IMG/VR virus record: IMGVR_UViG_3300031227_000045
Coordinates: 1-58,916 of that record
DNA from: a virus
Lineage: Duplodnaviria > Caudoviricetes
Direction: 5' to 3' (one strand)
Length of the DNA: 58,916 nt
This document shows positions 8,206 to 58,916 of this stretch, piece after piece. The position numbers and the translations under genes are program-made. A model generated the notes under the pieces. The model saw only the letters and a list, made by a program, of their open reading frames with translations, was not told the DNA's origin and made no database searches. Within the stretch, counting starts at the first letter, position 1. Each line of letters opens with the position of its first letter.

Positions 8206-8233
8206 CCCACACTCTCTCAGATTTCGTTCATTT

Positions 8234-8266
8234 AAAAGGGTGGTACTCTCGGGTGCCACCCTTTTT
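8234..8266. terminator. bidirectional intrinsic terminator between convergent arms
   Basis: AAAAGGGTGGTAC-TCTCGG-GTGCCACCCTTTTT, with an A-tract on one side and a T-tract on the other. Confidence 0.85.
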
Positions 8267-8270
8267 CTAT

Positions 8271-14385: not shown

Positions 14386-14397
14386 CCTCTATTTCCT

Positions 14398-15915: not shown

Positions 15916-15930
15916 TATTGTTCTTTCTTA

Positions 15931-21900: not shown

Positions 21901-22467
21901 TGTAGATAGGTGCGTAATTTCTTTTCGTAGGCCACTTAAAGCCCCAATGGATGTTCCAGTAACCTGAGATACTCTAACAAGTTCTCGTTGGAATTTAATA
22001 GCCTCTCCAACAGCACCGGAAATACTACGCAGTAAACCAAACACAACAGTAGTAGCAATAGTGAATCCAGCGAATCTACGAATAGCCAAACCAGATACAC
22101 GACCGAATTCTTCAATTTCATTTTTAGCTACTTTGGCAGCCTTACCGGTAGCTTTCAAACCACTAGCTGCTTTCTTAGCAGTAGTAGCTGTTTTAGCTAA
22201 TGGTGTAGTAGCGGTATGTACAGAAGCACCAAGTGCTTTTAGAGCCGCAGAAACTTTTGTTACTGAACTAGCAGTAGTCGCCAAAGTGGTATTAAATGAT
22301 GTAAAGGTTGTATCTAACTTTTTGATACTAGCACTGGCATTAGTATCGACCTTAATGGAAACAACACCTTTAACACCATTAATTTTACTTCTTAAGAGAC
22401 TAATTTGGCTATCAACATTGCCTAGTTTAGCATTGATTTGTGCTGTAAGATTAAAATTTGCTGCCAT
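15931..22467 (-). CDS. tail tape measure protein (TP901-like core), 2178 aa
   Basis: N-terminal Ala/Lys-rich helical core (ATTRESAESIATGLRTVFTRI); two GG..LxxGEYV motifs; Gly-rich hydrophobic segments; coiled coils. Confidence 0.9.
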   Translation of the reverse strand: MAANFNLTAQINAKLGNVDSQISLLRSKINGVKGVVSIKVDTNASASIKKLDTTFTSFNTTLATTASSVTKVSAALKALGASVHTATTPLAKTATTAKKAASGLKATGKAAKVAKNEIEEFGRVSGLAIRRFAGFTIATTVVFGLLRSISGAVGEAIKFQRELVRVSQVTGTSIGALSGLRKEITHLSTSLGVSSSQLIGVSRILSQTGLSASETKVALEALAKSDLAPTFSSIEKTAEGAVALMRQFKIGTEGLEKSLSSINAVAGKFAVESDDIIAAIRRAGGVFAAATKESDKGQKSLEQFIATFTSVRATTRESAESIATGLRTVFTRIQRGSTIRNLEKMGITLTDVEGKFVGAYDAINILGNELKSLDPRESRFSKIAEQLGGFRQISKVIPLIQQTETRMKALAVAQQGYNSLTRDSLTAQEAWEIQLKRVKEEFIALVREISNTQTFSVLISGIIQATRQLVQFAEAFKGLLPLITAFALVKGIGISKMFLSRRGFPSGLKGTEVPGSPKGFKGGGYVSSGSGMRDDVPAKLGKGEYVIQQKAVSAVGRPYLEALNRYGVGGETKPNIPVKAGAKRRAAIGPKIDRPLMKERMVGGALLKPPSPTDNTVTARAQNVSYLNGENKTYRLVRAGIPKSIAESTHGIFSKGVVASVKDAAKSFAGTELSTKIGTDVGLIKSLDIDSLGGHLFEGMLRTVGQQGIFDSGANDENPGNFDFTGNFFSSQGKLGTYFNKLKSIKYIDAKYSMNSAKPGEFQKKIENQLNFEKSHNEKRGTMGGNIPKAESARAKAIRIKSEDVTNARLKRLGKPPKFIRASTGGSVNALLTKGEYVMGSGPAGKLGKSFMDDLNNVHKFHDGGLVGYTDGGRRERIDNIVQNLPPNAIYAALEKIKAEKAKRAQPITNKEAQRQARLANAKRANRQKELAKRWGSKDVEKGVERYQKAERPRSVSVSDIHHVPVNYGQQQWTDDFNRRQAANKGAAPSPPPVRRVASTRPPHPSTHLPPGGRVSSTSPPPIMPPGSRGVVPSTSPPHQMPPPAPAPRNAIMMPTQGRIGPQELRAKTQQQAAALPFQGHKSVAVGRDVLGKMNISDKAYQAGMHAFVRKLKDTTNKVQKEGALTDALNKGRQAAIQAEKEYTKKTSRGSKLHALKNRFLSGKSGTSVALNKFTDRIGGVATFAAPMLASQFDPKGESSITQAFGGGIGTGGMASMLGLGPMGAVAGGIMGAATGIKGARTARATSKAEMILARTTKALNAAFEKLLATGSIEELQTSFGGLGKVIQTQEKAVSEASQTSYGSMFGKKIGEGTEDIDRFTYGQAVVTTALSPETLPDKMGLTYIGDMFRGAKKIVTKFGGTGLDFNTMGKNAAADLQTNVRNRKDAGNALRLENLKQNLAGSTGAVEKALSLRGETTLGEEGLKKDKALAALGLKTANIAKAVKDFGTWEITDELGKLTKLGRFLRGEGEKNMGKILEETALRKKLDTAMQANIKVLDALVTRFETMSAIMDRAAAAGGGATEDIRLMNAQRSGGVGVRNFAAGQQNVFANPRAFTPGQYDDASQRLITRMGGPGGSTSQAVEIAQGGKRLQDGLEKIIGEVLAKIEAGGPPLAGENPEGLVIEAITNNFSGSVPKEILDIVITNIKKQVNSNKGNVDFKDIFNQGNLSKVVAPAKQAAQDMLAKNVDVEMGMREKFITDYAVEATRELKQRAKMAAIQSDGITKQNQLSKSFGIVLSSTQQLEPFVARMRGLTKSGGIAGGTTNQQEIERKMQSLEGRKTNLTAAGKYFAEQGKWKEEAIMIRELAGVNFQLQANRMALDTLSKDTVRLSTIQSEIAQINKRRDEGNKSMLDLMSGGFKDRAKFQQKINLIGKFIQTGGKGMSEKQQAQAVKGMEEIRPMASTVHPGRENEINNVIGSFKAMATTAGYASRLGIPRNNMSTAAQAGAQRNFQLLGSGPAGVEEYLRDRPLPEHVKARIRENPAEQARKERLNAQGWGGTEAGRIGMDLGVDAARIKQDEARNLVRSQTQLAEALFKLDRLPNVLEKVEQRLAEQNAVMMGSNIPVSRPSQQNILPQNPIAPPGLQQAPPPLTPQAQFEKDFLDAARGGPESGQGASIQTPDKIEMVCRHTFDVNVNGLGGLEGGLKAQMEEVVNNQIKGWIDPLTTELRVNPTYNA

Positions 22468-33816: not shown

Positions 33817-34983
33817 TTATCTCCGATATATTGATTTACGTCTTTTTTGAAAAATAGCAATCAGGTAGGCAGGAGCCACCGCCGCCACCGTGTACGTCGC
33901 GTAGATCGACCAGAGATTGGTACTATCGGCACTCCAACCCCATCCGGGGAAGGTACTGGGAAACGAGTAGCCGCAGGGGTATGTCGCTGTTGCGGACCGC
34001 CCCCACTTCCGTGAGGCTCCGCCCGTGTCATAGCCAATCCCGATCGCAGGCCATTCGTGGTTGAATCCCAGGTAATGCGTGCCCGGGCTAAATGCACCAC
34101 CGCTCTCGATGTTCTGTGTCCACAAACTTACGTAATTGATAATTACTTCCCACTCGTTAGATTGCCCCTTGAGAGCATCTGGCGTGGTAGAGGTACCATC
34201 ATAGCAGCAGAAACGTCCCGCGATTGTTGAATCACTGTCTCGGCCCATGTAGGCGGACAAACTGGTTATCGTTCCACCTACGCCAACATCACCGATGCAA
34301 AACAGCCAGACATAATTTCTTGTCAGGTTGCCATATTTGGACGCACCATGCGACGTGTACCCGAACGTCGGATCGACGACGACCGGGTACGCCGACTTGG
34401 CCAGCGTCTTGAGCCACTTAACTAGCCCCGGCACCACGACCAGCCGCCCAAAGTGCCCGTGCTGCTGAACCTGGAGCCTAAACCACTTCACCTCGCCGGC
34501 TGCCGTCTCGGCCCTGGCCGCCGGGATGTGCCCGATCTTGCAGCCCGTCCCGTCGAATACGGCGTAGCTGCCAACACACCAATCGGGGCGGACGCAGCCC
34601 TTGGCGACCTCCTCCGCGGTCAAGGCCGGCTGATAGTGAAGTTGGCAGCCGGCCGGCAGTTCCAGTTGTGAGCGGTACTGGCCGAACTTCGGTACGCCGT
34701 CGAAAATCACCGTCTCTTTGAACCCGCCGCCCTCGGACGGGAAGCCGGGATAAAGCTTTTCGATGTCGGTCGCGTGCTCCCATTGCAAGAGCGTCTTGGT
34801 GTCCAGGGCGAACTCCCGACCACGGTCCAGCGGCCGATTGTGCGTCAAGCTGCCGTCGACGAACCGCTTCGTAACCGGCACACCCCAGCAATCCAACAGT
34901 GCCGTAGGTGTAGAGGCGATGCGGTCGATGGTCCGCGTGGACCACCGTTTCGACTCCCATCGTGCTGTCGTGCAAAACGCCAT
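33817..34983 (-). CDS. GC-rich two-domain protein, putative receptor-binding/appendage
   Basis: YPVVVDPTFGY domain junction; aromatic-rich C-domain; AT-rich hydrophobic+basic tail AYLIAIFQKRRKSIYRR. Confidence 0.55.
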   Translation of the reverse strand: MAFCTTARWESKRWSTRTIDRIASTPTALLDCWGVPVTKRFVDGSLTHNRPLDRGREFALDTKTLLQWEHATDIEKLYPGFPSEGGGFKETVIFDGVPKFGQYRSQLELPAGCQLHYQPALTAEEVAKGCVRPDWCVGSYAVFDGTGCKIGHIPAARAETAAGEVKWFRLQVQQHGHFGRLVVVPGLVKWLKTLAKSAYPVVVDPTFGYTSHGASKYGNLTRNYVWLFCIGDVGVGGTITSLSAYMGRDSDSTIAGRFCCYDGTSTTPDALKGQSNEWEVIINYVSLWTQNIESGGAFSPGTHYLGFNHEWPAIGIGYDTGGASRKWGRSATATYPCGYSFPSTFPGWGWSADSTNLWSIYATYTVAAVAPAYLIAIFQKRRKSIYRR

Positions 34984-35165
34984 TAGGCTGCCATTGGGTC
35001 TTTGAAAAACGGGCCGCCGCCGCCGAGGCCGTTGAGGCTGCCGCTTTGGCGGAAGAGTCCGCCTGCCACCGGCCCCGCCACCTTCGGCGTCAGCGCGTCG
35101 AGCTTGTCCACGAGGGCATCGGCATCTTTGAGCCTCGCCCGCTCTTGTGTCAGGTCTCTTGGCAT
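34983..35165 (-). CDS. small GC-rich hypothetical protein
   Basis: SD-like AAGGATAGGG upstream; TAATG coupling to the next gene. Confidence 0.55.
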   Translation of the reverse strand: MPRDLTQERARLKDADALVDKLDALTPKVAGPVAGGLFRQSGSLNGLGGGGPFFKDPMAA

Positions 35166-35169
35166 TTCC

Positions 35170-35268
35170 CTATCCTTTCATTGCTGCGAATACCACGCGG
35201 GTGTTGTACATCCGCACCTGTTTTTCGTCGACAGTCGGCTCGATGATGGTTTGAATTTGATTTGCCAT
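35170..35268 (-). CDS. 32-aa ORF MANQIQTIIEPTVDEKQVRMYNTRVVFAAMKG (not in the supplied track)
   Basis: AAGGA SD; its TAG lies 4 nt before the next ATG; spans the AT-to-GC junction. Confidence 0.5.
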   Translation of the reverse strand: MANQIQTIIEPTVDEKQVRMYNTRVVFAAMKG

Positions 35269-35330
35269 AAGAATTTCCTTGTATTAAAAAAAACATTATT
35301 GAGAATGTGGGATATATTTGTTAACATACT

Positions 35331-35340
35331 ATAATACACT
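35331..35340 (-). promoter_or_regulatory. candidate late promoter AGTGTATTAT
   Basis: Intergenic motif copy upstream of the appendage/neck genes. Confidence 0.45.
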
Positions 35341-35376
35341 AAATTAAAGTTTTTCTACTCTAAGTCAATAGTGGTC

Positions 35377-36975
35377 CTATACCTCAAAGCAATATTTCGC
35401 CTGTCCGCAATCCCAAATCTTAACTAGACCCTTATCGTAACCAGTATTACTGGGAAATTTACTTCTGTGAAATACCTCATATTGTCCATTTGTCCACTTA
35501 AAACTAGGATGTTCTCCAACATACTTAAAACCCAAGTTGGTAAGATATGACCCATTTCCATACCTTAAGTCTATAAAAGTTGTTATAGATGTAGGCTTTA
35601 ACTGTCCCACAGCATATTTTAGCAACCTAGAAAATCCTCCACGCACACTACAATTTAATAGTGGGCAAAAGCGAGAAATCTCATATGTAGAATCTTCAAC
35701 ACAACACACCCTCATCAAACATACGATTTCATCATTAAGTATTAATGCGTAGGATGTACCCCTACCATTACCCATTAAATGATTCTTCTGTAAGAAATCC
35801 TTAGAAGTAGTCTTGTCCACCGTTTGAATTTTACATTCTCTAGCGTTTAACTTGCGCGCACCACCAAACTTATTAGATATGATAGACTTTACAATATCAA
35901 ATTTATTATTGATTTCATCCTCTCTGAAAAATAGCGGAGTATATTCATTTTTAATATAAAGTTTGCGTTTGTTAACATGATAATTGTTATCTTTCACTAC
36001 TGCATCTGAATGCCAATAAAGACCATCACACTCTATGATTAAGTTATGAGAGGGAATAAAGAAGTCTGCAATTTTTCCTTCTACACGAAATTGTTTTTGA
36101 TATGGGATAGATAAGGTGTTGAACCATTCTCGCATAGTTACCTCTAAAGAACTTTCTTGTGGAGTTAATGTAATAGCTTTTTCTATACCATATTTAACTA
36201 CCAAAGTATAAAAATGAGAGCGCGAAAACCCAACCTGCTCAGCAATAGTAGGATATGTTTGGTCTTTATATAGTTTGACATCTCCGTTTGCAATTCTTGT
36301 TAAAAGCCCTTTATGCACTGCATCCTTAGCAACATTAGATATCTTCATATGATGAGTAACTCCACGCTTTTGAATATGGGTTGCGCGGATTTTGGCCTTT
36401 ATCCCTTCATCCTGAAAGGCGTTATCTACGCCAAATTTAGTTTGACACCCATCTTTCATAAGCTCTTTTCCTGCATCACTTTGAGAAGCATAAGCAGTAC
36501 CAAATCGCTCTTTACAAGTCTCCATTCTTTTTTGTTTAACATCTTCTAAGAGAGAGGGGTTATCTACGCCATATTTATCAATAAATACTTGTTTTTGATG
36601 TTCCTTTACATCGTCGTTTTGTATAGCATGTTCACAACCATATTTTTTTAGATTGGTTTGTTTAACTTGCTCTTTAAATTCATCTGATTGGAGACGGTCT
36701 ATATTAGCATCTCTAATCTTATCTTTTACATCCTTTAACTGAGATACATTTTTCACTCCGTACTTAGCCATATTTACATCCGACATCTTTTCATAGCGAC
36801 AAGCTTTACAAGAATCCTTATCAACCAGGACATTTGATTTAGTTCGTCGTTTTGGAGTCGTGTCATAAATCCTATCACAATAATCACACTGAACTTTAAC
36901 CTTTTTATTTGAGCCACTACTTAAGCTTGCAGGATAATAACTATAGGTCTCTAAAGTTTGTTGTACTAATAACAT
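35377..36975 (-). CDS. Hef-like/Vsr-type homing endonuclease with KYGV repeats
   Basis: Repeated K(Y/F)GVDN units; SSLE..ADFFIP..IECDGLYWH; C-terminal GGFSRLLKY, DLRYGNG, WDCGQ. Confidence 0.8.
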   Translation of the reverse strand: MLLVQQTLETYSYYPASLSSGSNKKVKVQCDYCDRIYDTTPKRRTKSNVLVDKDSCKACRYEKMSDVNMAKYGVKNVSQLKDVKDKIRDANIDRLQSDEFKEQVKQTNLKKYGCEHAIQNDDVKEHQKQVFIDKYGVDNPSLLEDVKQKRMETCKERFGTAYASQSDAGKELMKDGCQTKFGVDNAFQDEGIKAKIRATHIQKRGVTHHMKISNVAKDAVHKGLLTRIANGDVKLYKDQTYPTIAEQVGFSRSHFYTLVVKYGIEKAITLTPQESSLEVTMREWFNTLSIPYQKQFRVEGKIADFFIPSHNLIIECDGLYWHSDAVVKDNNYHVNKRKLYIKNEYTPLFFREDEINNKFDIVKSIISNKFGGARKLNARECKIQTVDKTTSKDFLQKNHLMGNGRGTSYALILNDEIVCLMRVCCVEDSTYEISRFCPLLNCSVRGGFSRLLKYAVGQLKPTSITTFIDLRYGNGSYLTNLGFKYVGEHPSFKWTNGQYEVFHRSKFPSNTGYDKGLVKIWDCGQAKYCFEV

Positions 36976-40266: not shown

Positions 40267-40668
40267 TTAAGATTTACTTGGTAAAAGCGCCTTGGCTAGA
40301 CTCTCAGAAAGCTCTTGTTGCTTTGCCGGGTCATTAGACACCTCACGAAAACCACCTAGATTTTCTACAATTTGCGAAGCCACAGCTTTCACTTGTTCAT
40401 CCCATACTTCACCATCTTTTGAAGCCATAGTACGAATAACTGTAACAGTATCATCTTTTTCATTACGGGTCACTTGAGAAACCTCAAGAGAAAATTTACC
40501 ATCATCATCCCACTTGGGATATACATAAATACCAGATACATCTTCTAAGACAGTTGCACCCATCTTAACCGACATAGTCTTTTCGGTGGTATCATAATTA
40601 ATTGTTATTTTCATATTCATCTCCTGATAAGTGTATACAAACACTTGTCTGAACTTTTCTAAGTTCAT
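40267..40668 (-). CDS. hypothetical protein (likely start at MNMKITINY after AGGAG)
   Basis: Between portal and protease genes; AGGAG SD near 40620. Confidence 0.6.
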   Translation of the reverse strand: MNLEKFRQVFVYTYQEMNMKITINYDTTEKTMSVKMGATVLEDVSGIYVYPKWDDDGKFSLEVSQVTRNEKDDTVTVIRTMASKDGEVWDEQVKAVASQIVENLGGFREVSNDPAKQQELSESLAKALLPSKS

Positions 40669-42769
40669 CTAAGGTTAGTTTTCTGTCCATTTGACTAGCT
40701 ATCTCACCTGACCACTCCTTACACAAAGCAACTGCCTGTTGGCTTACAGGTAATTGTAGAGCAGCAGAAATAGTAGTCTCGCTTACTTCACTCAATGGTT
40801 CAATATTACATAAAACACCAAATTTAACATTTTCAGCCATTCCCAACTGCTTGGCGGTTAGACTGCGCATATTCTTTTTTTGGTAATGCTCAATAAAGCC
40901 TTCATTCAATACCTCTGAAATTGCTGATTGCGCAAAATCTGCCCAAATCTCCATTACAGCTTTAGACTTAGGGGTAAATGTCTTCTTCTTGCGCGGCGTA
41001 GAGTCTTTCTTATTCTTGGGGCGACCCTGTCCAGGGGCACCTTTCTTCTTAGTCGTGGTAGTACCACCTGGCGGCACCTTCATTTTTAGTGCTGGTTGTT
41101 CGCCGGATGGCTTGGGGTCTAACTTTAAACCTACTTGACCTGGAGTAACAGCGCCGGTTTGTAAAGCAACTTTCTTGAGTGCCAACATAAACTGAGGGTC
41201 ATAGAATGCGCCAGCTTTAGGAGGCAAGGAACCATTCTCACGACCTCTATGTTCTCTTCTAATTCTAATGTTTTCCATTTCTTCATCATGTCCAAAGTAA
41301 CGTTGAAACAACTCGTCAGAAATTAGATTGCGGTCTACCATTTGAATTAACAATGCTTTTTCGGCAGCCTCATCACCTAGAGAGGTCCAAGTAAATTCTA
41401 ACCTAGCCGGAAAACGAAAACCCATAGCTTCTTGAACTAATTTGAATTCGTTATTCCAGAACTCTTCTAATACTTCACGACCATACTCTAGGCGCTGTAC
41501 TAAGGTTTTGATAGAAATAAAGTTGTTGGTTGTGCCAGCAGCGCCAAATGTACCAGTAAGAGTTGGGGGAATACCTAGACCAGCATAGATATTATTAAGA
41601 GTAGGCTTGTACTTGTCTTCACCTAAGAATTGATGGACGGTAGTTTTACTTTCTACTAATTCAATATCTGGACCCCATATTAGGTCCATAGTACCAGCAC
41701 CCATATGGTTTTCAAGAATCTCACCTAGGCGAGCAGCAGCAGTTCTAGTAGGGGCAATTTTATGTTCCAAACTACCTAACTTGAAAATACGAATGTTAGA
41801 TATTGCACCATCTAAAGCTGCCGTATCAGCCAACTTGAGTTTCTGTAAAAGGTTAATATCTTCCATGATAGAATAAATCATGGGATTAGCCCAAGTTTGC
41901 CAGTCATCTTTTTTGTAATGATAAACGATGGTTTTATCTGGTGGTAATAAAACAGGTTTATTAGTTCGAGCGGCCTCTTTGATTTCAGGTGGTAATTCTT
42001 TAACTAATTCTATTTCTTCTGGTGTTTGAGGATTGGTAATCATCCTACGTAAATGAGCTGGTATAATTAAAGAATATAAACTTTTACCAACAAAAGAAGA
42101 TAGTTCCTTACCAACTACATCTATTGTAATAGGATTGAGGAATGTATACCTCCAAGGAATTTCTCTTTTATGAACTACATCTTTGACCATCTTAGTATCA
42201 GGTTTAGCCTGAGCCTTCTTGGTCATTTCTGTTTGGTCTTTAACGCTAATACGCGCAGTTTGCTTACGTATTACAACATTTCCTAAGCGATACAAATGAT
42301 TCAAAAATCTTTCTGAACGTTCTTTCCCATGTACCTTCTTCCACCAACTACGCATAAAGCGTTGGATTTTAGGATTAGGATGAACAACACGTACTCCTTG
42401 GCAGGCAAAATCTCCCATTAAATCAATAATATTCTTTATTAAACCGACCTTTTGATATGACCTATCAGACATGAACATAATAGCTTTATGGTCACCAATC
42501 TGAGGAATAGCCTCATTGGGTCTAAAAGCATCATAACCATCACGACCTAGTCCTGGTCTACTAGATACATTAGTAGCTAAATCAGAATAGTCTTGTCCGT
42601 ATGGGGCACTATAATAACCGTTGTATGAACCAACCGCTTTACCCATTTCGACAAAAGCCTTATCTCGTTGAACAGCACTACCAGCCCACGAAATAAACAT
42701 AGGACCATCATCATGGGATGCTTCTGGCACCCCTTTGATTTCAGCAGCACTTCTACGTCTCTTAGCCAT
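40598..42769 (-). CDS. portal protein
   Basis: Follows terminase; IIDLM.DF..G, YRLGNV, L..IYAGLGIP..L.G; basic/Pro-rich C-terminal extension; start moved to MAKRRR. Confidence 0.8.
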   Translation of the reverse strand: MAKRRRSAAEIKGVPEASHDDGPMFISWAGSAVQRDKAFVEMGKAVGSYNGYYSAPYGQDYSDLATNVSSRPGLGRDGYDAFRPNEAIPQIGDHKAIMFMSDRSYQKVGLIKNIIDLMGDFACQGVRVVHPNPKIQRFMRSWWKKVHGKERSERFLNHLYRLGNVVIRKQTARISVKDQTEMTKKAQAKPDTKMVKDVVHKREIPWRYTFLNPITIDVVGKELSSFVGKSLYSLIIPAHLRRMITNPQTPEEIELVKELPPEIKEAARTNKPVLLPPDKTIVYHYKKDDWQTWANPMIYSIMEDINLLQKLKLADTAALDGAISNIRIFKLGSLEHKIAPTRTAAARLGEILENHMGAGTMDLIWGPDIELVESKTTVHQFLGEDKYKPTLNNIYAGLGIPPTLTGTFGAAGTTNNFISIKTLVQRLEYGREVLEEFWNNEFKLVQEAMGFRFPARLEFTWTSLGDEAAEKALLIQMVDRNLISDELFQRYFGHDEEMENIRIRREHRGRENGSLPPKAGAFYDPQFMLALKKVALQTGAVTPGQVGLKLDPKPSGEQPALKMKVPPGGTTTTKKKGAPGQGRPKNKKDSTPRKKKTFTPKSKAVMEIWADFAQSAISEVLNEGFIEHYQKKNMRSLTAKQLGMAENVKFGVLCNIEPLSEVSETTISAALQLPVSQQAVALCKEWSGEIASQMDRKLTLDELRKVQTSVCIHLSGDEYENNN

Positions 42770-42838
42770 AATAAAGTATACCTTTGTTATAATAGAATTC
42801 AGTATAACTACAATACTATTGTAATAGCATTGTGTAAT

Positions 42839-42848
42839 ACTATACACC
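42839..42848 (-). promoter_or_regulatory. candidate late promoter GGTGTATAGT
   Basis: Motif copy just past the terminase stop, upstream of the portal gene. Confidence 0.55.
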
Positions 42849-42853
42849 AACCG

Positions 42854-48008: not shown

Positions 48009-48491
48009 TTAAGCGTGTCGTGTTTTAGTAGGGTCATTAATTGATTTACCTGGGTTGGGAATAAATACTCCGGTTCTACTACCAGGAATTGATTTGAGTG
48101 GTTGAGTAGGCACAACTGAATGATTACGTTGTGTTGGACCAGCTATCACTGGGACATTCTTACCATGCGCACGCGAAACATTATGGACGTTTCTAACTGC
48201 TTTAACAGTTTCATCAGATAAACTCTTATCATATGCATCTGGTTTAGCAGGAGAAGATATAGGTTTCATTGGTCTTGCTTCAACAATAGACTTTACGGGT
48301 ACTTCTTCGTCTACAGCAAAACCTTTTAGGGGTGCTGTATACTTTGCTAATGCCGCTAGTTCTTTTTCTTTTCTTAATAGGGTTTCCTTTAATCTATTTG
48401 CTGCATCTTGCATAATACCATCGTCATCAGATGGTACTGATTGTAAACTCTCTTCTTTATTCGTCTTATTCATCTTGTAAATACTCCACAT
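48009..48491 (-). CDS. hypothetical low-complexity protein
   Basis: Co-oriented ORF in the operon; start uncertain. Confidence 0.5.
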   Translation of the reverse strand: MWSIYKMNKTNKEESLQSVPSDDDGIMQDAANRLKETLLRKEKELAALAKYTAPLKGFAVDEEVPVKSIVEARPMKPISSPAKPDAYDKSLSDETVKAVRNVHNVSRAHGKNVPVIAGPTQRNHSVVPTQPLKSIPGSRTGVFIPNPGKSINDPTKTRHA

Positions 48492-49275
48492 CTAGTAAGG
48501 GTTGGTCTACTTTTCCGTCTTCATACTCGTGAAACTCTGCTAATTTTTTAGCTTTCTGTTCTGCCGCAATCTTAAAGAGTTCAGCTTCTTCTCCCATGTC
48601 TGAGCGCCTCTCTTCGTCTTCTAACATTCTCAATAATCCTTGCCAGCTAGTCTTACTATCTTCGACCCTTTTAATACGGTCATCTCTACTAGCTTTAAGC
48701 GCCTTGGTAAGGTATTTAGATACATCTGATAATTTAGCATATTCAGTAGTGTATGCCATTACGGATGCGCGAGATGCAGCAATCTGAGTGGATAAATTAG
48801 CCATCAAATCTTTATCTCTATCTCCAGGCTTTGCTTTATACTCTTTATCAAGCTGTTGTTGTAAGTCTTCAGCGCCCATTTGATTTTGTCGTCTATCTCT
48901 CATGGCGCGATTCATAGAGATTTCTATGGTAAGATATTGTTTGAGTTGCATCTCTTCAGATGGAAGCATATCTTCCTTAAACTGCAACTGCATATCAGTC
49001 CACTGTTCTTCAAAATATCTCAATTCTGTATCAGTAAATTGTTGTTCAACAATAGGCCAATATTTCTTTTCGTGTAACGTTTGCTTTAAACGTATACGAG
49101 TAGCGCTTGCCTCCTGGTCTATTTGAGGGCGCAAACTCTTTAATTTTACAAATTTAGCAATTGTTTCAACTGTTCTATTAAGTTGCTGGGCTATGTCCTC
49201 ATCAGACATTTCAGCAACATTACGTCGAATAAAGTTAATGTCGTTGTTACTAAATTTCCCACGCTTCTTTGGCAT
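48466..49275 (-). CDS. HTH + coiled-coil protein, candidate terminase small subunit
   Basis: N-terminal SDEDIAQQLNRTVETI HTH followed by long helices; upstream of terL. Confidence 0.45.
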   Translation of the reverse strand: MPKKRGKFSNNDINFIRRNVAEMSDEDIAQQLNRTVETIAKFVKLKSLRPQIDQEASATRIRLKQTLHEKKYWPIVEQQFTDTELRYFEEQWTDMQLQFKEDMLPSEEMQLKQYLTIEISMNRAMRDRRQNQMGAEDLQQQLDKEYKAKPGDRDKDLMANLSTQIAASRASVMAYTTEYAKLSDVSKYLTKALKASRDDRIKRVEDSKTSWQGLLRMLEDEERRSDMGEEAELFKIAAEQKAKKLAEFHEYEDGKVDQPLLDVEYLQDE

Positions 49276-49879
49276 TGATACCTGCCTCCTCTAATATAAC
49301 TAATATCGCTTGTTGTAATTTGATTCTATGATTTTTTGGTATGTGAACATCTTTTTTACACAGTAACCAATCTTTACGTAAAGTCACAGGTAGTTTTTCA
49401 TCTATAATATCTATCAACTCTTTATACATAAGTGTCTTAACAATATTATCGAAGTGTTTGGTTGATGATTCTTCCTCATCATTGATGCCCGATAAATCCA
49501 ATGGTTTCATTAGGTTCTTTTTAGCATCATTGCGCCTAACCCAATTTGTGTGCAATGGACAATCTTTAATGATATCATACACAGAGCATTCACCATTGAC
49601 AAGCTTGCTACATGAATCACATGGGGTATTAGGGCGTTCGAAATTATCTCGCTTAAAATTAAATAATCTATTATGAACATGAGTCCATAAAAAGTTTTCG
49701 AGTGGACGCTTGCCATCATATTTACCAGATGCCAAAGCTTTTATAGCCAATAGGCGTCCCTGTTGTTTCATATCGTCTATGTCATGATATCCAAAACGAA
49801 ACTTATATGCCAATCTATAAACTACTTTGTTAATGATTTGTACGACCTCATTCTCGGTCATTCCCTTGGGTATGTTCAT
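49250..49879 (-). CDS. phage sigma-factor-like protein
   Basis: Region-2-like DIDDMKQQGRL..KYD.KRPLENFL...V.NRL.N..R; Cys-rich insert; region-4-like IDEKLP..LR. Confidence 0.7.
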   Translation of the reverse strand: MNIPKGMTENEVVQIINKVVYRLAYKFRFGYHDIDDMKQQGRLLAIKALASGKYDGKRPLENFLWTHVHNRLFNFKRDNFERPNTPCDSCSKLVNGECSVYDIIKDCPLHTNWVRRNDAKKNLMKPLDLSGINDEEESSTKHFDNIVKTLMYKELIDIIDEKLPVTLRKDWLLCKKDVHIPKNHRIKLQQAILVILEEAGINAKEAWEI

Positions 49880-50058: not shown

Positions 50059-50113
50059 GTAAGTGTGGCGTATGACACCAAGAAATGTGGATATTTCAAG
50101 AAATAGGAGCAAA

Positions 50114-50380
50114 ATGATGAATAAAATATGGTCAGACGTAGATAAACAGTTCGTTAAGGACAACGCTGGTAAGATGAAGGATAGTAAGATAGCAGAAGAA
50201 TTGACTAAGCGTAACAATAGAAAGGTCAGTTTACAAGCTGTACGTAAACAACGCCAAAAGCTAGGTTTAAACAAAAAACCTGGCAGAGGTATATGTGCGC
50301 TAGTAGAGCAGGAAAAAATTCAACAACCAATGGCGGCACCAACCCCATCATCGGGTGTCCCCGCTAATGTAGCTTTATAA
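50114..50380 (+). CDS. small HTH (Myb/GcrA-like) DNA-binding protein
   Basis: WS..D..F......D.KIAEEL.....SLQAVRKQRQKLGL; AGGAG SD before ATG 50114. Confidence 0.65.
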   Translation: MMNKIWSDVDKQFVKDNAGKMKDSKIAEELTKRNNRKVSLQAVRKQRQKLGLNKKPGRGICALVEQEKIQQPMAAPTPSSGVPANVAL

Positions 50381-52962: not shown

Positions 52963-53367
52963 ATGTGTTTAATCGCTGAACCTGTTAATACTCAACGTCT
53001 ATTAGAAAAATTACATCCAATTGTTACAGTATGGAAAGTAGTAAAAAGAATACCCAATAGTATACAATCACCACATTATTACACACCATATTATTGCAAA
53101 CGAATTAAACAAAAGGGTTGGATGCGCTCTAATAGAAGGTGGTACACACCTACTATAGAAAGATTTTTTTCACTTCCTCACCCATACTATAGTGTACGCA
53201 AAGGCATTCATGTGTATTTAGACAAACGCACAGCAGTTGGAATGAGTCATATACTTCAAGGTGATGTAGTAAGATGTAGAGCCTTAAGAAGTGATTTAGT
53301 TGCTTGTGATGGATTACAAAGCCATGCTGTATTTACTAAGATTTATGTACCAAAGTTAGACATATGA
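52963..53367 (+). CDS. hypothetical protein, paralogue of the previous gene
   Basis: Same motif series; AAGGA SD. Confidence 0.75.
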   Translation: MCLIAEPVNTQRLLEKLHPIVTVWKVVKRIPNSIQSPHYYTPYYCKRIKQKGWMRSNRRWYTPTIERFFSLPHPYYSVRKGIHVYLDKRTAVGMSHILQGDVVRCRALRSDLVACDGLQSHAVFTKIYVPKLDI

Positions 53368-53888
53368 ACAATATAGCAGAACATATAATTGTCGTTAACC
53401 ATGCTTTAAAAAATAACCTACCTATTTACTGGCATCAAGACGATAACTTTCAATGTGAGTTCGATGACATCTTTGATAACCAACAATTAGACATAGTTAA
53501 TGAGCCTATTCCTCTTACATATCCAAGTGTATTACCAGGAATAAACAAGGTAATGTTCAAACCCTCTATAATTTGTCGCGCAGAAGAAATGTCACAACAA
53601 CTTAATGTGGGCGAATGTATGGGGGTTGAAATGGATAGTATTGGGGTAAAGGATGATGGACTGCCTTTGTTCTTGAGTGTGCGCAATAGACAGGAGATAA
53701 TTGAGGGGCGCAGGAAATGGGGCGAGAGAATCACATATTATAATAGGTCTGTATGGGGCTACCATAGGAAGGACGGGGTCGTAGAAGGGGTTATAAACTT
53801 TCTTCTGTTCGTTATGTGTGGTCAAATTAATACCTCAACGTATAATGGCTTTTTAGCTCAGCGTTTTAGTGGGGCCGTTAATGTATAA
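53364..53888 (+). CDS. hypothetical protein
   Basis: ATGA coupling; 174 aa. Confidence 0.6.
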   Translation: MNNIAEHIIVVNHALKNNLPIYWHQDDNFQCEFDDIFDNQQLDIVNEPIPLTYPSVLPGINKVMFKPSIICRAEEMSQQLNVGECMGVEMDSIGVKDDGLPLFLSVRNRQEIIEGRRKWGERITYYNRSVWGYHRKDGVVEGVINFLLFVMCGQINTSTYNGFLAQRFSGAVNV

Positions 53889-54303
53889 ACACCAACACGC
53901 CAATACAACGATTTGCGGGCCTATAGCCTTGGCTAACCTACAGATATGGGAGGGAGGCACCACCTATACCTTGAAACAACTCAAGCAAATGTGTCATTGT
54001 ACTAATGGGAGGGGCTCTCCTATGATTTGGTTTGCAAGGAGTCTTTGTGAGATGGGTAGTACATACGGGTGGCAAATAGAGGCCGTGAATCGTTTAGAAT
54101 TGGTTGTGGCGCAAGATACAATAATGGTCGGGCATTTTCGCAATGAAGAATTTCCGCGCGGGCATTATATGTTAATCACAGGTGGTCACGGTAGTGTTTT
54201 TTGCTGCATAAATTGGAGGAGGAGAGTAGAGCATGTGGCTTTGGAGGAGCTGTTGAAACTAAACATTTCGAAGACGTGGATTGTGAGGAAAGGTGTTAAA
54301 TAA
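53881..54303 (+). CDS. papain-fold (C39-like) cysteine peptidase
   Basis: Q....CGPIALAN, GHYMLI, and a downstream Asn (INW) giving a Cys-His-Asn triad pattern. Confidence 0.6.
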   Translation: MYKHQHANTTICGPIALANLQIWEGGTTYTLKQLKQMCHCTNGRGSPMIWFARSLCEMGSTYGWQIEAVNRLELVVAQDTIMVGHFRNEEFPRGHYMLITGGHGSVFCCINWRRRVEHVALEELLKLNISKTWIVRKGVK

Positions 54304-54374
54304 AAGTGACTGTTTGTTAATATGGTGTATTTGATAAAGGTGGTATATTTCACATTTTTGAATGAGGCGTAGAT

Positions 54375-55790
54375 ATGGGAAGACCAGCAGGTTCTTTAGA
54401 TAAGAAAAGACGTAAAACTAAAACACAATGGACTACTAGTGAAGTAGAGTTGCTTAAACAAAACTTATGTGATTTAACAATAGTAGAATTAGCAATATTA
54501 TTACATAAGTCTAAAAGTTCCATACGTAATAAATTAAAACAATTAAGGCTAATTAAACCTAACATTTTAAAAACATGTACTTTAGATAAATCTATAGAAT
54601 GGTCTTTTGCTGGTGTTTATGGTTTATTAAACATTAAAACTAATTGTATCTATATAGGTAGTAGTGCGAATATTGCTAATAGAATACAAAATCATTTAAG
54701 TCGCTTAAGGGTTGATTCACATTGTACTAAAAAACTACAATCTAATTGGAATAAATCAGATTTTGTAGTTGCGTTATTATTTGTGTGTGATAAATACAAA
54801 ACTGAGTTATATGAACAAAGATTTACAAGGTCGTGGCCTGAAGACAAATTGTATAATTCTCCCCCGATACAACATACTAAATTACGTTTACTACCACTAG
54901 AGAGACAAAAGATATTAGATTTAATAGATAAAAAAGGGGACGATGAATGTTGGAATTGGAAAGGGCCATTAGATAGTAATGGCAAATATGGCAGAATAAG
55001 GTTTGACAATAAGCAGTATACGCCTCATCGCCTGGCAGTGTTTTTAGATGGACGAGACCCATTTGGTTATGCAGTTTGTCATTTATGTAATAACCCATTA
55101 TGTTGTAACCCCAAACATTTGCAACTAGGAACCGCTATAATTAATAATGGGCATAAACCCCACCCTTTGGATATCTATAAAGATGAAATGATTAAATTAT
55201 ACAATAGTGGTATGACTTACAATAGTCTAGGTAAAAAATACAATAGAGACGGTGTAAGTATTAAAAGGTATTTACAACAACATGTTACATTAAGGCCCGC
55301 ACAACGCAAGAGGACATATGTAGCCTTTGGAGAGTATAAATCTTTATCCGAGTGGGTTTTAGATAACAGGTGTATTATTACACTATTTAGACTAAAACAA
55401 AGAGTCAAAACAACAAACTTAAATGATAATAATATTGAAAAAATTATTACAACCCCATTCATAAGAAAAACCCCGTTTTCTACAAAAACATTTGAAGCTT
55501 TTGGAGAACAAAAAACAGTGCGAGAATGGCTATTAGATAAAAGATGTGTAGCATCAGAATCAACCCTAAAGGTTAGGTTATTTACTATTGGTTATGATGT
55601 AGAAAAAGCTTTAACAATCCCATCTAAACCTGTATTTAAAATATCTCAATTAGAATATCCTAAGATTATTGAAGCGGCTGCAAAAGGTGAAACATACAAA
55701 ACTATTGCCGAAAGATACAATGTTTCTATAACAACGATTAGACTCATTTGTGTCTATAGATATTCATCGGATGTGTATACATTGCCGTAA
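54375..55790 (+). CDS. multidomain endonuclease: HTH + GIY-YIG + HNH + DNA-binding repeats
   Basis: GVYGLLN....IYIGSS..R..H; CWNWKG..YGRI..HRL..VCHLCNNPLCCNPKHL; AFGE.K...EW..D.RC twice. Confidence 0.85.
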   Translation: MGRPAGSLDKKRRKTKTQWTTSEVELLKQNLCDLTIVELAILLHKSKSSIRNKLKQLRLIKPNILKTCTLDKSIEWSFAGVYGLLNIKTNCIYIGSSANIANRIQNHLSRLRVDSHCTKKLQSNWNKSDFVVALLFVCDKYKTELYEQRFTRSWPEDKLYNSPPIQHTKLRLLPLERQKILDLIDKKGDDECWNWKGPLDSNGKYGRIRFDNKQYTPHRLAVFLDGRDPFGYAVCHLCNNPLCCNPKHLQLGTAIINNGHKPHPLDIYKDEMIKLYNSGMTYNSLGKKYNRDGVSIKRYLQQHVTLRPAQRKRTYVAFGEYKSLSEWVLDNRCIITLFRLKQRVKTTNLNDNNIEKIITTPFIRKTPFSTKTFEAFGEQKTVREWLLDKRCVASESTLKVRLFTIGYDVEKALTIPSKPVFKISQLEYPKIIEAAAKGETYKTIAERYNVSITTIRLICVYRYSSDVYTLP

Positions 55791-55920
55791 AAGTGGCCAT
55801 TTCAATAAATAGGTGGGGGTATTTATGATAAATGAGGCTCACCACTTAGCCTGAACCCCTGCCAGAAATCTTACCTAAAGTACCTACCCTTTTTACATTG
55901 AAAAAACCCCCTGGGTTCAT

Positions 55921-55964
55921 CGGGTACAGCGAGTGTGCTTCGGGTACAGCGAGTGTGCTTCGGG
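55921..55964. repeat. 20-bp tandem repeat (CGGGTACAGCGAGTGTGCTT) x2.2
   Basis: Exact copies; flanked by inverted GGGTTC (55913) and GAACCC (55965). Confidence 0.9.
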
Positions 55965-56210
55965 GAACCCCTTGACAATCCCCTCAATCTACTGTATGTC
56001 AACCATGCAAACCGGCACCGATTATCCCCCTCGAATAGAAAATAAAGTATTTTCAATCGACGTAACCTATTGCTATCAAAGGGATTACATCGGGGGGTGT
56101 GGCCCAATTCACAATGGGTACAATGGGGTATTTTTCGACGTAAATTGTTGGTGTGTAACTACTTAAGTATTACCCCACCTTTGGTGGTAAACTGTAGGGT
56201 AGAGGGACAC

Positions 56211-56351
56211 ATGAAACACAAACAACAACGCCCCGACGGTAGCAAACGGCCCCGACGTAACGGGGAACGGGGTATTGCAAGGCAAAGCTATTATGCAAAG
56301 TATCGGGCAAAAAGGTTTGCGGCCCGATTCTTCCCTTCTGAAAAGGAGTAG
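56211..56351 (+). CDS. 46-aa highly basic peptide
   Basis: AGAGGGA SD; candidate extended -10 TGGTAAACT at 56185-56193; its end contains the SD of the next gene. Confidence 0.55.
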   Translation: MKHKQQRPDGSKRPRRNGERGIARQSYYAKYRAKRFAARFFPSEKE

Positions 56352-56356
56352 CGACA

Positions 56357-56626
56357 ATGGGAGCCCTGCCACTTAGCTTGAAACGTTTCGAGGGAGCGAC
56401 GCCGGGTTGTATCGCGTTCAGCCATAGGGACAAGAACGGCACCGTTACCTACCACAGTTGGAGTCTGAACCATGAGGGGGCCAGGGTATACCTCCGGCGT
56501 GGGGTGCTGGTCGTCAAGGGATACGACTACAATGCCCCCGCCCGCTACGGGTGTGGTTTGGGCGATTGGAGAACCCTTGAGCTAGCCCGCATGTTCACCC
56601 GACATTCTGACATAGTGGTCGGATGA
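56357..56626 (+). CDS. hypothetical protein (89 aa)
   Basis: AAGGAG SD. Confidence 0.65.
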   Translation: MGALPLSLKRFEGATPGCIAFSHRDKNGTVTYHSWSLNHEGARVYLRRGVLVVKGYDYNAPARYGCGLGDWRTLELARMFTRHSDIVVG

Positions 56627-56634
56627 TAACCAGG

Positions 56635-56695
56635 GGCTCCCCTCGCAAGAGGGGAGTCGCCGCCTGCCCCCTCGCTGGAGGGGGTGGGTGGCGGC
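56635..56695 (+). other. intergenic double-hairpin element, copy 1
   Basis: GGCTCCCCTC-GCAA-GAGGGGAGTC immediately followed by GCCGCCTGCCCCCTC-GCTG-GAGGGGGTGGGTGGCGGC. Confidence 0.8.
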
Positions 56696-56726
56696 TAACT
56701 ACAATCCTCTTTTTTGGAGAGTCGGA

Positions 56727-56939
56727 ATGCATTACAGCCCCTATGAGACAAGTTTGTTTATCGCCATGTTGGACCAAGCACCCATTCGCGTCAACGGATT
56801 CACCCCAGCGAGGGACTGGATTCGTATTATGGCAGTCGTCTTAAAGCTGGAAGTTAAAAAGGACGGCCTTGGTGAGTTAATTGCCACAGTCGAGGACAAC
56901 AAGGGTTGTGTTCTGGTTGTCGAAATAGCCGATGGTTAA
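56727..56939 (+). CDS. hypothetical protein (70 aa)
   Basis: GGAG SD before ATG 56727. Confidence 0.6.
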   Translation: MHYSPYETSLFIAMLDQAPIRVNGFTPARDWIRIMAVVLKLEVKKDGLGELIATVEDNKGCVLVVEIADG

Positions 56940-56948
56940 CCAGCACCA

Positions 56949-57009
56949 GGCTCCCCTTCGTAAGAGGGGGAGTCGCCGCCTGCCCCCTGCTAAGGGGGTA
57001 GACGGCGGC
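56949..57009 (+). other. intergenic double-hairpin element, copy 2
   Basis: GGCTCCCCTTC-GTAA-GAGGGGGAGTC followed by GCCGCCTGCCCCCT-GCTA-AGGGGGTAGACGGCGGC. Confidence 0.8.
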
Positions 57010-57041
57010 TGAAACCCTTACTTTTACTTGGAGTGGTTACC

Positions 57042-57236
57042 ATGCAAACAATGAATCTCAGCTTGCAAGTGGTTACAAGAGACGGAGAAACGGTCGTCAA
57101 GGCTAGAGTCGGACGTGGTATGTCAGTCATGGAAAAAGACTTCTCGATTGTGGAGTGGAAAAGTCTGGCTAGTGACATTGCACAAGAGATTAGAGAGATT
57201 GAATTGGCACAATGGGCGGAGTGTTTCTGCCCCTAG
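57042..57236 (+). CDS. hypothetical protein (64 aa)
   Basis: GGAG SD before ATG 57042; followed by a terminator. Confidence 0.6.
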   Translation: MQTMNLSLQVVTRDGETVVKARVGRGMSVMEKDFSIVEWKSLASDIAQEIREIELAQWAECFCP

Positions 57237-57245
57237 GGTAGCGTA

Positions 57246-57283
57246 CCCTCCCCCTCACTTGAGGGGGAGGGCCTTTTGCTTTT
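57246..57283 (+). terminator. intrinsic terminator
   Basis: CCCTCCCCCTC-ACTT-GAGGGGGAGGG then CCTTTTGCTTTT. Confidence 0.8.
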
Positions 57284-57765
57284 GGTATTCATCGTAAGTT
57301 GTTATTACATAAGGACTTACAACTCGTACTGCGTGACGTGACTTAACCTCTTGCTATCAAAGGCTTTACGTCGAATCGTCCTTAAGTGGGGGTTACATAG
57401 AGGGGTGAGTATCCCAGAGTACCCAGCTTATCTATACTACTCAAACAGCACACCTTGCCCAGTTGTCCCAGCTTAACTAGCTTCGTCCGCCGGGGGGTAT
57501 GTGCCCCTGCTAGCGAAGTACCTCTAATTATTTTTTGGAATCCCCATAGGTGGCAACCCCCTCTGAGGTAGTACAAATGGTAAGATGGGTAAGCTGCGCT
57601 AGATAGGTATGTTACTATGGGGTGTTTGGGTACATTAGGTTGACCTACCCCCCCGTACCGGAAACGGAAGTGTCCTTTACACCCGTTTGGGGGGGTGACG
57701 TGACGTAACCCCTTATGGCATAACGACTTACGACTACCCCTCCTATGGGTGGCATAGGCTAACCC

Positions 57766-57792
57766 TTGACTACCCCTGTATAATACTATAGA
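57766..57792 (+). promoter_or_regulatory. possible promoter for the second small-gene operon
   Basis: TTGACT and TATAAT/TACTAT hexamers are present, but spacing is non-canonical. Confidence 0.35.
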
Positions 57793-57866
57793 GGGGTTCG
57801 GGGGAGGCAGGGGGGTGAGTAAACCCCCCACCCGAACTACGGCACCCCACTAGAGGAGTACTCATT

Positions 57867-58208
57867 ATGGCGGAAACCCAGACCTGGAAGAGTGGGCAAG
57901 CTACGCAAGATACGCAAGCTCCGCGGTTCTGCGGCACTGCGTCGATTAGTCAAGCCATAGAATGTGGCGGGTATGGGAAAACCTGGGGGTTTTGGTACTT
58001 TGGGAAGAAAGACCAAGCCCCGCGATATAGGTGGGCTACGGTCCACCCCCCGACTGGGGACAAGCCCACCCTCGTGAGTGGTAGTCACTTCGTGGGGTAC
58101 GACCCCCACGCGAAAGATAGGAAGACTGGGGCGATTGGGGGGTTTAGGTTCTTCTACTTCGGAAAGATGGACGACCTTAGTCCTGTGGAGGGGTACTTCA
58201 CCCCCTAG
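57867..58208 (+). CDS. hypothetical protein (113 aa) with internal GFWYFGK/GFRFFYFGK repeat
   Basis: GAGGAG SD; structured leader at 57796-57837. Confidence 0.65.
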   Translation: MAETQTWKSGQATQDTQAPRFCGTASISQAIECGGYGKTWGFWYFGKKDQAPRYRWATVHPPTGDKPTLVSGSHFVGYDPHAKDRKTGAIGGFRFFYFGKMDDLSPVEGYFTP

Positions 58209-58226
58209 ACTGAGTAGTCCAAGTGG

Positions 58227-58285
58227 GGTGCCCCTCGCAAGAGGGGTGCCTCTCCCTGCCCCCCAGAGTAAGGGGTCAAAGAGAG
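58227..58285 (+). other. intergenic double-hairpin element, diverged copy 3
   Basis: GGTGCCCCTC-GCAA-GAGGGGTGCC followed by CTCTC..CCCC-AGAGTAA-GGGG..GAGAG. Confidence 0.65.
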
Positions 58286-58316
58286 TCAACAACACCCCCA
58301 CAAGAGGAGCATACAG

Positions 58317-58688
58317 ATGTTCAGCAACTCCGAGTTCGCCCAAATTACCGGCATCCCCCAAGATGCCATGGGTGCCCTGCCCCCCTTGGGTGCCCACCTT
58401 TGCAGGGAGCTGTCATTTGCCGAGTTTGCCCTATTTACCATCCCGGTGGTTGAGGTAAACGGGGCAACCCACGACCTCTGGGCTGTTAAGCGACAGTCGG
58501 CAACCCGCATGGGCCTGGATGCTCGCGGGGAAGAGGCAAGCTGGGCAAAAGAGGAAGAACGGAGAAGGAAGGAAAACCTTGCACACTACATCGAGTTGGC
58601 TGAAAAGGGGTTCTGCGACGGTGAGGAAGTCGAGGAACTTGAGGTAAGCCTGACCGACTGTGCCCTTCATAGGAAAGGGGAAGGTTAG
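58317..58688 (+). CDS. hypothetical protein (123 aa)
   Basis: GAGGAG SD; followed by a terminator. Confidence 0.65.
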   Translation: MFSNSEFAQITGIPQDAMGALPPLGAHLCRELSFAEFALFTIPVVEVNGATHDLWAVKRQSATRMGLDARGEEASWAKEEERRRKENLAHYIELAEKGFCDGEEVEELEVSLTDCALHRKGEG

Positions 58689-58704
58689 GCTAGTTGGGTA
58701 AGTC

Positions 58705-58728
58705 GCCCCCCGAAAGGGGGGCTTTTTT
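58705..58728 (+). terminator. intrinsic terminator
   Basis: GCCCCCC-GAAA-GGGGGGC-TTTTTT. Confidence 0.9.
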
Positions 58729-58810
58729 ATGTAGTCATCCTATTTGTCCCAGCTTAACTTGCTTCTTCCACCGGGGGGTGCGCCACCCTGCCAGCGAACT
58801 AGGGTGAGCA

Positions 58811-58883
58811 CACTTAGTGAAAATACACTAGGTGTGTTAGCACTACCGTAGTGTAGTAACACTTAGTGCGTTAGCACCTTGAG
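58811..58883. repeat. periodic CAC..GTG mini-palindromes
   Basis: CACTTAGTG (58811), CACTAGGTG (58826), CACTACCGTAGTG (58841), CACTTAGTG (58860), CACCTTGAG (58875); spacings 15,15,19,15. Confidence 0.7.
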
Positions 58884-58916
58884 TCGCCATAAGCCCTTTG
58901 ATAGCCTAGACTTAGG

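Follow-up and report, generated by a model that had tools for sequence, protein, structure and literature searches.

The stretch of DNA analysed here (the window) is the whole linear IMG/VR record IMGVR_UViG_3300031227_000045 of 58,916 bp, which is estimated to be 39% complete; the full genome of this uncultured phage would measure about 150-170 kb. Tail and head genes lie in the GC-poor part of the window (35-40% GC over bases 1-55.8 kb). The last 3 kb, with 52% GC, carry two operons of small open reading frames (ORFs), before, between and after which lie spaced palindromes of the form TAA-N4-TT-N7-AA-N4-TTA. These palindromes are the subject of this report. A first-pass annotation, made from the letters alone, had listed six of them and read them as tyrosine-recombinase-type sites by which operons could be excised or inverted, with a role as operators as the alternative. 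The features of the window are collected in Table 1.

The same phage is represented by another public contig (L290), which matches window positions 54153-58916 at 99.96% identity, crosses the GC step and extends 5.8 kb beyond the window. A chimeric assembly at the GC shift was considered and rejected, as L290 spans the step at this identity and relatives share the layout. The window ends where the repeated modules of L290 start, and 58 nt beyond the window end is also where the contigs of three other runs stop; the repeats of the array account for such breaks in assemblies of these phages. Window sequence is present in many runs labelled salt lake metagenome, no RNA run being among those listed as containing it, and identical pieces of it occur in all four salt-lake DNA runs compared (Logan contigs; X7, X8, X12, X16).

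The 25-bp motif was counted in the window and in dinucleotide shuffles of it. Six exact matches face 0.43 expected (standard deviation 0.62, maximum 2; none of 100 shuffles reached 6). Five of the six are annotated sites 1-5, each lying one base inside its 27-bp coordinates, which establishes that the palindromes near the window's end are real; the remaining match, at 23928 in AT-rich coding DNA, looks like a product of chance. With one mismatch allowed, the whole window holds 15 matches where 10.4 are expected. A frequency near background, which the first-pass annotation had named as a finding that would speak against the motif, thus applies to the relaxed pattern but not to the exact one, and the only signal that stands out of the window is that of exact matches over its final 3 kb. 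The GACG/CGTC flanks are as described, and so is the central GCTATCA common to sites 1 and 4. These two sites lie in a 34-bp repeat (85% identical) and share their centre because they are paralogous copies. Site 6 is missed by the pattern even at one mismatch, so that five rather than six of the annotated sites fit it. It is nevertheless a true member of the motif, since in L290 it is followed after 31 nt, beyond the window end, by the promoter TTGACA-N16-TATAAT (TTGACAtagCCGATAActatagTATAAT), and a paralogous proximal site in L290 has the same CT variant. The string GCTATCAAAGGG.TTA is common to sites 6 and 1, inverted between them.

Table 1. Features of the window. Positions are those of the 58,916-bp record; a dot marks features given without orientation.
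Feature	Positions	Strand	Remarks
GC-rich island	55870-58916	+	52% GC vs 35-40% elsewhere; start of the presumably early small-gene array, which continues for at least 5.7 kb in L290
Site 1	56063-56087	.	exact motif; GACG on 5' flank
Site 2	56141-56165	.	exact motif, flanked by GACG; site 1 lies 78 bp before it
Site 3	57295-57319	.	exact motif; distal half of 49-bp pair; follows terminator
Site 4	57344-57368	.	exact motif; proximal half of 49-bp pair; site 1 paralogue
Site 5	57706-57730	.	exact motif; GACG/CGAC flanks
Site 6	58890-58914	.	two mismatches, CT replacing AA; promoter-proximal site of its module
Operon 1, ORFs of 46, 89, 70 and 64 aa	56211-57236	+	56211-56351, 56357-56626, 56727-56939, 57042-57236
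Operon 2, two ORFs (113 aa, 123 aa)	57867-58688	+	57867-58208, 58317-58688
Double hairpin between cistrons	56635-56692	+	-55.4 kcal/mol, z -6.3; further copies 56949-57009 and 58227-58284
Intrinsic terminator of operon 1	57246-57271	+	11-bp stem and T run
Second intrinsic terminator	58705-58722
63-nt repeat	57458-57520	+	second copy 58739-58801, 81% identical
269-aa protein, N-terminal helix-turn-helix-like motif	48466-49275	-	kept in 6/6 genomes
Sigma-factor-like gene	49250-49879	-	adjoins array, divergent from it; Sigma70_r2, E 2.8e-4, below Pfam cut-off; 6/6 genomes
105-aa protein, helix-turn-helix and basic GRP/GRG tail	50063-50380	+	first gene transcribed toward array; 3/5 complete relatives
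Tape measure protein	15931-22467
Portal	40598-42850
Large terminase, 1,109 aa	42854-46183	-

Beyond this phage, the motif is a clade-wide conserved element of a large group of uncultured big phages. A two-site pattern search of IMG/VR returned at least 120 stretches; 119 new loci among the matches listed, amounting to 1.07 Mb, contain 589 sites, compared with 19 for the pattern read backwards. Four or more sites are found at 65 of these loci, two or three at 16 and a single one at 38, and many of the loci are 64-77% identical to the structural genes of the window at the DNA level. The 123-aa protein of operon 2 led to a relative rated complete (G001, 172,878 bp), whose portal is 45% identical to that of the window and whose 15 sites all fall within 6,077-18,324. 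The same confinement of strict sites to one block is seen in G002 (19/20), G003 (21/21), G004 (12/12) and G005 (8/8), against 0-3 matches per genome for the reversed pattern in these four. In the five near-complete relatives together, 75 of 76 strict sites lie inside a single block of 9-18 kb each. The scan of relatives proposed with the first-pass annotation hence supports a conserved element confined to the array. On the other hand, a scan of viral contigs with a single site (GCTATCAAAGGNNTTA) gave single matches only, in unrelated contigs, and is uninformative. A literature search, supplementary files aside, returned no description of this motif.

The genes neighbouring the array are syntenic in all six genomes and comprise a nuclease, a GDP-mannose dehydratase, the 269-aa helix-turn-helix protein and the sigma-like gene. 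At every locus with enough flanking sequence (36/36) the GC content of the array exceeds that of its flanks, by 7.6 points on average and by up to 17, and therefore the GC step of the window is a feature of the clade. The level within the array is about 39-51% regardless of backbone GC (30-50%). The array of G001 (L124) holds genes for tRNA-Glu (9449-9523) and tRNA-Trp (18674-18746), and the window has no tRNA gene.

Among genome contigs, 36 motif-bearing stretches (L254-L289) were retrieved, all of them from records titled as metagenome-assembled genomes (MAGs) with mixed taxonomy, including many unrelated phyla; six are tandem repeats or AT-rich chance matches (L256, L258, L269, L280, L263, L273). 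The MAG-filed contigs with site arrays are probably misbinned phage contigs. One of them, with a typical array, is 141 kb long (RFTN01000003.1). As none of the 36 stretches comes from an isolate genome, no host can be named. Site pairs are also found in the salt-lake runs.

The sites come in pairs. Exactly 53 bp separate successive sites in 152 of 193 short gaps; this is the usual pair spacing, and 49 bp is that of the lineage of the window phage. All five further pairs of L290 have the 49-bp spacing, and therefore the site 3/4 pair of the window is normal for its lineage. Including its flanks, the full form of a site is GACG-TAA-N4-TT-N7-AA-N4-TTA-CGTC, and GACG/CGTC belong to the motif. Oriented by the promoter, the distal site has the consensus gacg-TAAaccCTTg-N5-tAAggacTTA-cGaC and the proximal site GaCG-TAAgt.CTTa-N5-cAAcgACTTA-cG. 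The spacer between them has 75% GC with a GGCCGGCC-like centre of symmetry, so that the site pair and its GC-rich centre are one dyad-symmetric unit of about 78 bp. Each site has ten invariant positions in addition to the flanks. The N positions are weakly or not informative and do not covary, and the preferred N4 bases differ by genome (AGAGTTTA in G003 versus GTCCTT in G004). Dyad-symmetric contact positions with free positions between them are what is expected of an operator. Complementarity of the free positions within a site does not exceed that of permuted controls, shuffled spacers fold as well as the real ones (z +0.25), and complementarity between the sites in the GC-rich spacer shows a small excess (8.46 versus 8.02 of 14). 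The missing covariation and the missing spacer fold therefore point to recognition by a protein and not to an RNA structure or a cruciform.

Promoters were called as sigma70-type if they scored at least 10 of 12 and lay no more than 130 nt from a pair. Among 122 unique 53-bp pairs, 89 have such a promoter on exactly one side, directed away from the pair, and in no case are both sides occupied. Over 80 non-redundant cases, the proximal site and the -35 box are separated by distances that cluster at 20-21, 29-32, 40-41 and 51-53 nt. A Rayleigh test on the 60 cases not exceeding a distance of 60 gives p of about 6e-9 for a 10.5-bp period, compared with 0.3-0.6 at 7-8 bp. The distances are thus in helical phase, and such a fixed or phased position relative to the promoter is again a property of operators. 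Site and -35 box are separated by an A/T-rich stretch. Beyond the window, L290 continues with six modules, the first of which uses site 6 and the other five of which contain the 49-bp pairs; their distances are 31, 31, 40, 29, 31 and 31, and all have CGATA in the promoter spacer. The latter word occurs in the -35/-10 spacer or just past the -10 box in 66 of the 80 pair-adjacent promoters, where about 0.015 are expected per window of search, and may represent a second operator. Examples of CGATA(A/T) are found at L290 4794-4821 and L124 11546-11575; the promoters inside the window are without it. Promoters at long distance often have an additional GCAA[AC]..TGCCA element (18/27). Within the window, a candidate extended -10 box read off the sequence (TGgTAAACT, 56186-56194) adjoins site 2 ahead of the first small ORF, and TTGACT (57766-57771) lies 35 nt downstream of site 5 with a poor -10 box.

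Pairing, promoter side and helical phasing support the operator alternative of the first-pass annotation. Based on these comparisons of sequence, we hypothesize that the spaced palindromes are probably paired operators for a putative regulator of early ("host-takeover") promoters, and not recombination sites. Each 25-bp palindrome would be the site for a symmetric (dimeric) DNA-binding protein, and two sites with their GC-rich centre would form an upstream element of about 78 bp before nearly every sigma70 promoter of the presumably early small-gene array. The target of the bound protein would be RNA polymerase or, alternatively, a second element in the core promoter, its effect would depend on the helical face, and the whole early gene set would be switched together. 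Shut-off or modulation appears likelier than activation, because the promoters are already near consensus.

Several observations weigh against the operator hypothesis. No strong promoter is found near 33 of the 122 pairs, and the lineage difference between 53 and 49 bp is hard to tolerate for a rigid two-site complex. The five exact sites of the window are themselves atypical, with spacings of 78 and 49 bp and adjoining promoters that have poor -10 boxes and no CGATA. Part of the phasing could be a legacy of a small number of old paralogous module families and not a sign of ongoing selection; even so, agreement in phase of four independent classes by chance appears unlikely (about 0.02, by a rough estimate). 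With respect to the binder, none of 14 array-encoded families is present in all five complete relatives at the level of BLAST, and the small 105-aa helix-turn-helix protein occurs in just three of them. No HU/IHF-type gene was found in any of the five relatives. The same holds for a phi29 p4-type gene (PF05464, 0/5), in a search that matched no control genome either.

The putative binder could be encoded by the phage or by its host, a conserved host factor being a possible candidate. Among the phage genes, the 269-aa protein may be the regulator or, alternatively, a small terminase subunit, and the sigma-like gene may encode the phage's own late sigma factor. Neither of the two helix-turn-helix proteins has a relative in PDB. 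The search for a binder also returned weak matches to the PHROG 'D5-like regulator' (E 3e-4 to 7e-4). The TT and AA steps of a site are 9 bp apart, which matches the kink spacing in IHF-type complexes and may serve as a lead.

Upstream regulators that depend on the face of the helix include CRP at its class I sites, Fis at rrnB P1, and IHF at lambda pL or Mu Pe. Their permitted positions likewise differ by whole helical turns, and a site length of 25-33 bp recalls DNA-bending proteins. However, the consensus fits none of them, the closest being AA-N4-TTA compared with the IHF core CAA-N4-TTR. In phage phi29, protein p4 binds at the A2c/A2b/A3 promoters to spaced inverted repeats (CTTTTT-15 bp-AAAATG; PMC3100819; PMC1904284), each site being occupied by a dimer, and thereby switches early transcription (PMC3100819). 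The present element resembles this arrangement in its spaced inverted repeats with mostly A/T conserved positions, and in having two sites per region upstream of early promoters of sigma-A/sigma70 type (PMC3100819). It differs in motif and spacing. Furthermore, the four phi29 sites are gathered in a single region, in contrast to the present pairs, which recur ahead of at least a dozen promoters, and phi29 additionally requires protein p6.

The PeSL elements of T4-type phages are likewise repeated composite modules, consisting of an upstream element, an A/T-rich stretch, a near-consensus sigma70 promoter and a Shine-Dalgarno sequence (PMC4122927; PMC2839356), and sit between small ORFan genes of a hyperplastic region (PMC4122927). 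In contrast to PeSL, the upstream part of the present modules is a dyad-symmetric double site and not a stem-loop, as the z score of the spacer indicates, and ends of insertions and deletions are not enriched at the element. T4-type phages are unrelated to the present clade, for whose major capsid protein the best identity to a cultured phage is 21%, to Bacillus phage G. The host-takeover operons of phage SPO1 each have their own strong host-type promoter, as do the operons of the present array, and their block is located in the terminal redundancy; we know of no comparable paired palindromes in it. Both phages group many small genes, presumably early ones in the present case, in one compact block (PMC6873191), arranged in short operons. 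By analogy, the element seems to act like the paired p4 sites of phi29 combined with phased upstream sites, in a layout like that of PeSL, and appears to belong to neither family.

Among other explanations, the element may be an architectural insulator or roadblock, a bound pair that stops upstream read-through and shields a strong promoter from occlusion while initiation itself is not controlled. A hairpin with T-run terminator is found within 160 nt before the pair in 8 of 80 cases, compared with 4 in control stretches, and in 29 of the 80 an open frame at least 30 codons long terminates at the distal site, with its first TAA as stop codon (9 and 16 in the other frames). Because terminators are rare and the distal site supplies stop codons, the element is often the sole separator of two operons, as an insulator would be. 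However, a roadblock needs no helical phasing with the downstream -35 box, and in the window good intrinsic terminators precede the sites. We therefore regard this explanation as rather unlikely.

Slightly less probable, in our estimate, is that the modules serve shuffling in the manner of PeSL, the repeats of site and promoter acting as homology patches by which ordinary homologous recombination swaps, deletes and inserts cassettes of small genes. Modules at different positions are 70-88% identical over 100-260 bp, and the array keeps a GC level of its own at all 36 loci. Gene content between the sites is hypervariable, and five of the six array ORFs of the window are without a homologue in any relative compared, the exception being the 123-aa protein (35% identical to a protein of the G001 array); a variable accessory array between conserved sites had been anticipated correctly. 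Some replaced cassettes do end at sites, with single breakpoints 4 and 14 bp (L193/L226), 18 bp (L130/L157) and 13 bp (L181/L237) from a site centre. Breakpoints were derived by comparing related arrays (82-98.5% identical) with blastn and chaining the segments; the 103 de-duplicated cases within arrays are coarse, being taken from segment ends. They show no overall enrichment: 30 of 103 lie within 100 bp of a site against 24.6 expected (62 of 500 randomisations reach 30), and 36 within 150 bp against 34.4. Clean insertions and deletions lie 75-575 bp away from sites. Moreover, conserved contacts, dyad symmetry and phasing are not explained by shuffling alone, and shuffling could be a by-product of the regulatory repeats.

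An element acting at the level of RNA, with the transcribed palindromes as signals for processing, antitermination or stability, appears very improbable. Compared with mononucleotide shuffles, the complete 90-nt element does fold better (mean z -2.3), and its distal site often overlaps the upstream stop codon. However, this z score follows from the palindromic consensus alone, and the site 3/4 pair of the window reaches only -1.2. Covariation of the variable positions is seen neither inside a site nor from one site to the other, apart from the small excess in the GC-rich spacer mentioned above, and scans of the window for Rfam families and tRNAs returned no match. Site-specific recombination, in which a tyrosine recombinase would excise or invert operons at inverted arms around an asymmetric overlap, is close to refuted. 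The sites are indeed spaced inverted repeats, and GCTATCA is central in sites 1 and 4 and inverted in site 6, but these three are the only ones in the window to share a central 7-mer, and the 7-mer is otherwise hypervariable (the commonest occurs in 15 of 474 unique sites, GCTATCA in 4). Breakpoints are not enriched in the sites, with 3 of the 103 falling no more than 12 bp from a site centre where 4.8 are expected, an outcome of the kind that the first-pass annotation itself had named as refuting this reading; the sites are phased with promoters; and Phage_integrase (PF00589) and Resolvase (PF00239) were found in none of the five near-complete relatives, in searches whose controls matched in 14/14 and 12/14 genomes (the window itself is 39% complete). 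The Logan contigs of the four salt-lake runs show no junctions over 53000-58916, which is not evidence of absence as contigs drop rare variants. Loose contig ends at 57700/57734 belong to a different contig sharing only a site-5-like element.

If the operator hypothesis holds, one short DNA signature would flag the early-gene block of a large and widespread group of uncultured phages, and would also predict promoter positions and gene direction. The 78-bp element would then be a handle for finding a new phage transcription regulator, and the modules would provide a natural series of promoters with the upstream site shifted by whole helical turns. In base composition, these presumably early genes are marked by the raised GC of their island. 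More tentatively, the whole early programme of the clade might run on one undescribed device, consisting of the phased tripartite palindromic element of 78 bp, CGATA and a binder of a new kind. The GC-rich island would serve as a plug-in platform for ORFan genes of fast turnover, and the repeats would occasionally mediate the exchange of cassettes between phages of very different base composition.

Within the operons of the window, the intercistronic hairpins, both terminators and the repeat are as described in the first-pass annotation, except that the repeat measures 63 nt and not 55 bp. The ORFs of operon 1 have no family match. Two intercistronic folds were evaluated, at -55.4 and -49.8 kcal/mol (z -6.3 and -6.2); the double hairpins have loops of the GCAA/GUAA type, and another one occurs at L290 5205-5265. 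They are likely stabilisers of the mRNA or processing sites. The two copies of the 63-nt repeat, in contrast, find no support as structured RNA (z -0.9 and +0.5). One copy lies in a non-coding stretch of 340 bp (57370-57700) together with a promoter-like site on the minus strand (57556 to 57527, 10/12 matches), and a small or antisense RNA may be encoded there. Two unrelated repeat pairs (56050-56094/57331-57375 and 57460-57519/58741-58800) have the same offset of 1281 bp, which ranks first among all offsets between 200 and 2500 bp, with background identity in between the repeat pairs.

With regard to the remainder of the window, no match to cultured phages was found for its DNA or for its portal, and its large terminase is 26-28% identical to those of Bacillus phages. 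Besides the structural genes it encodes a nicotinamide phosphoribosyltransferase, a GDP-mannose dehydratase and homing endonucleases. Residues about 329-754 of the terminase match non-terminase ORFs of other phages and PHROG 36001, which suggests a putative inserted intein or homing element within this gene. A patch of 50% GC amid the structural genes (34001-36975) encodes a homing endonuclease of 532 aa (PHROG 3339, E 7e-72), and a fused GIY-YIG and HNH endonuclease is found at 54375-55790.

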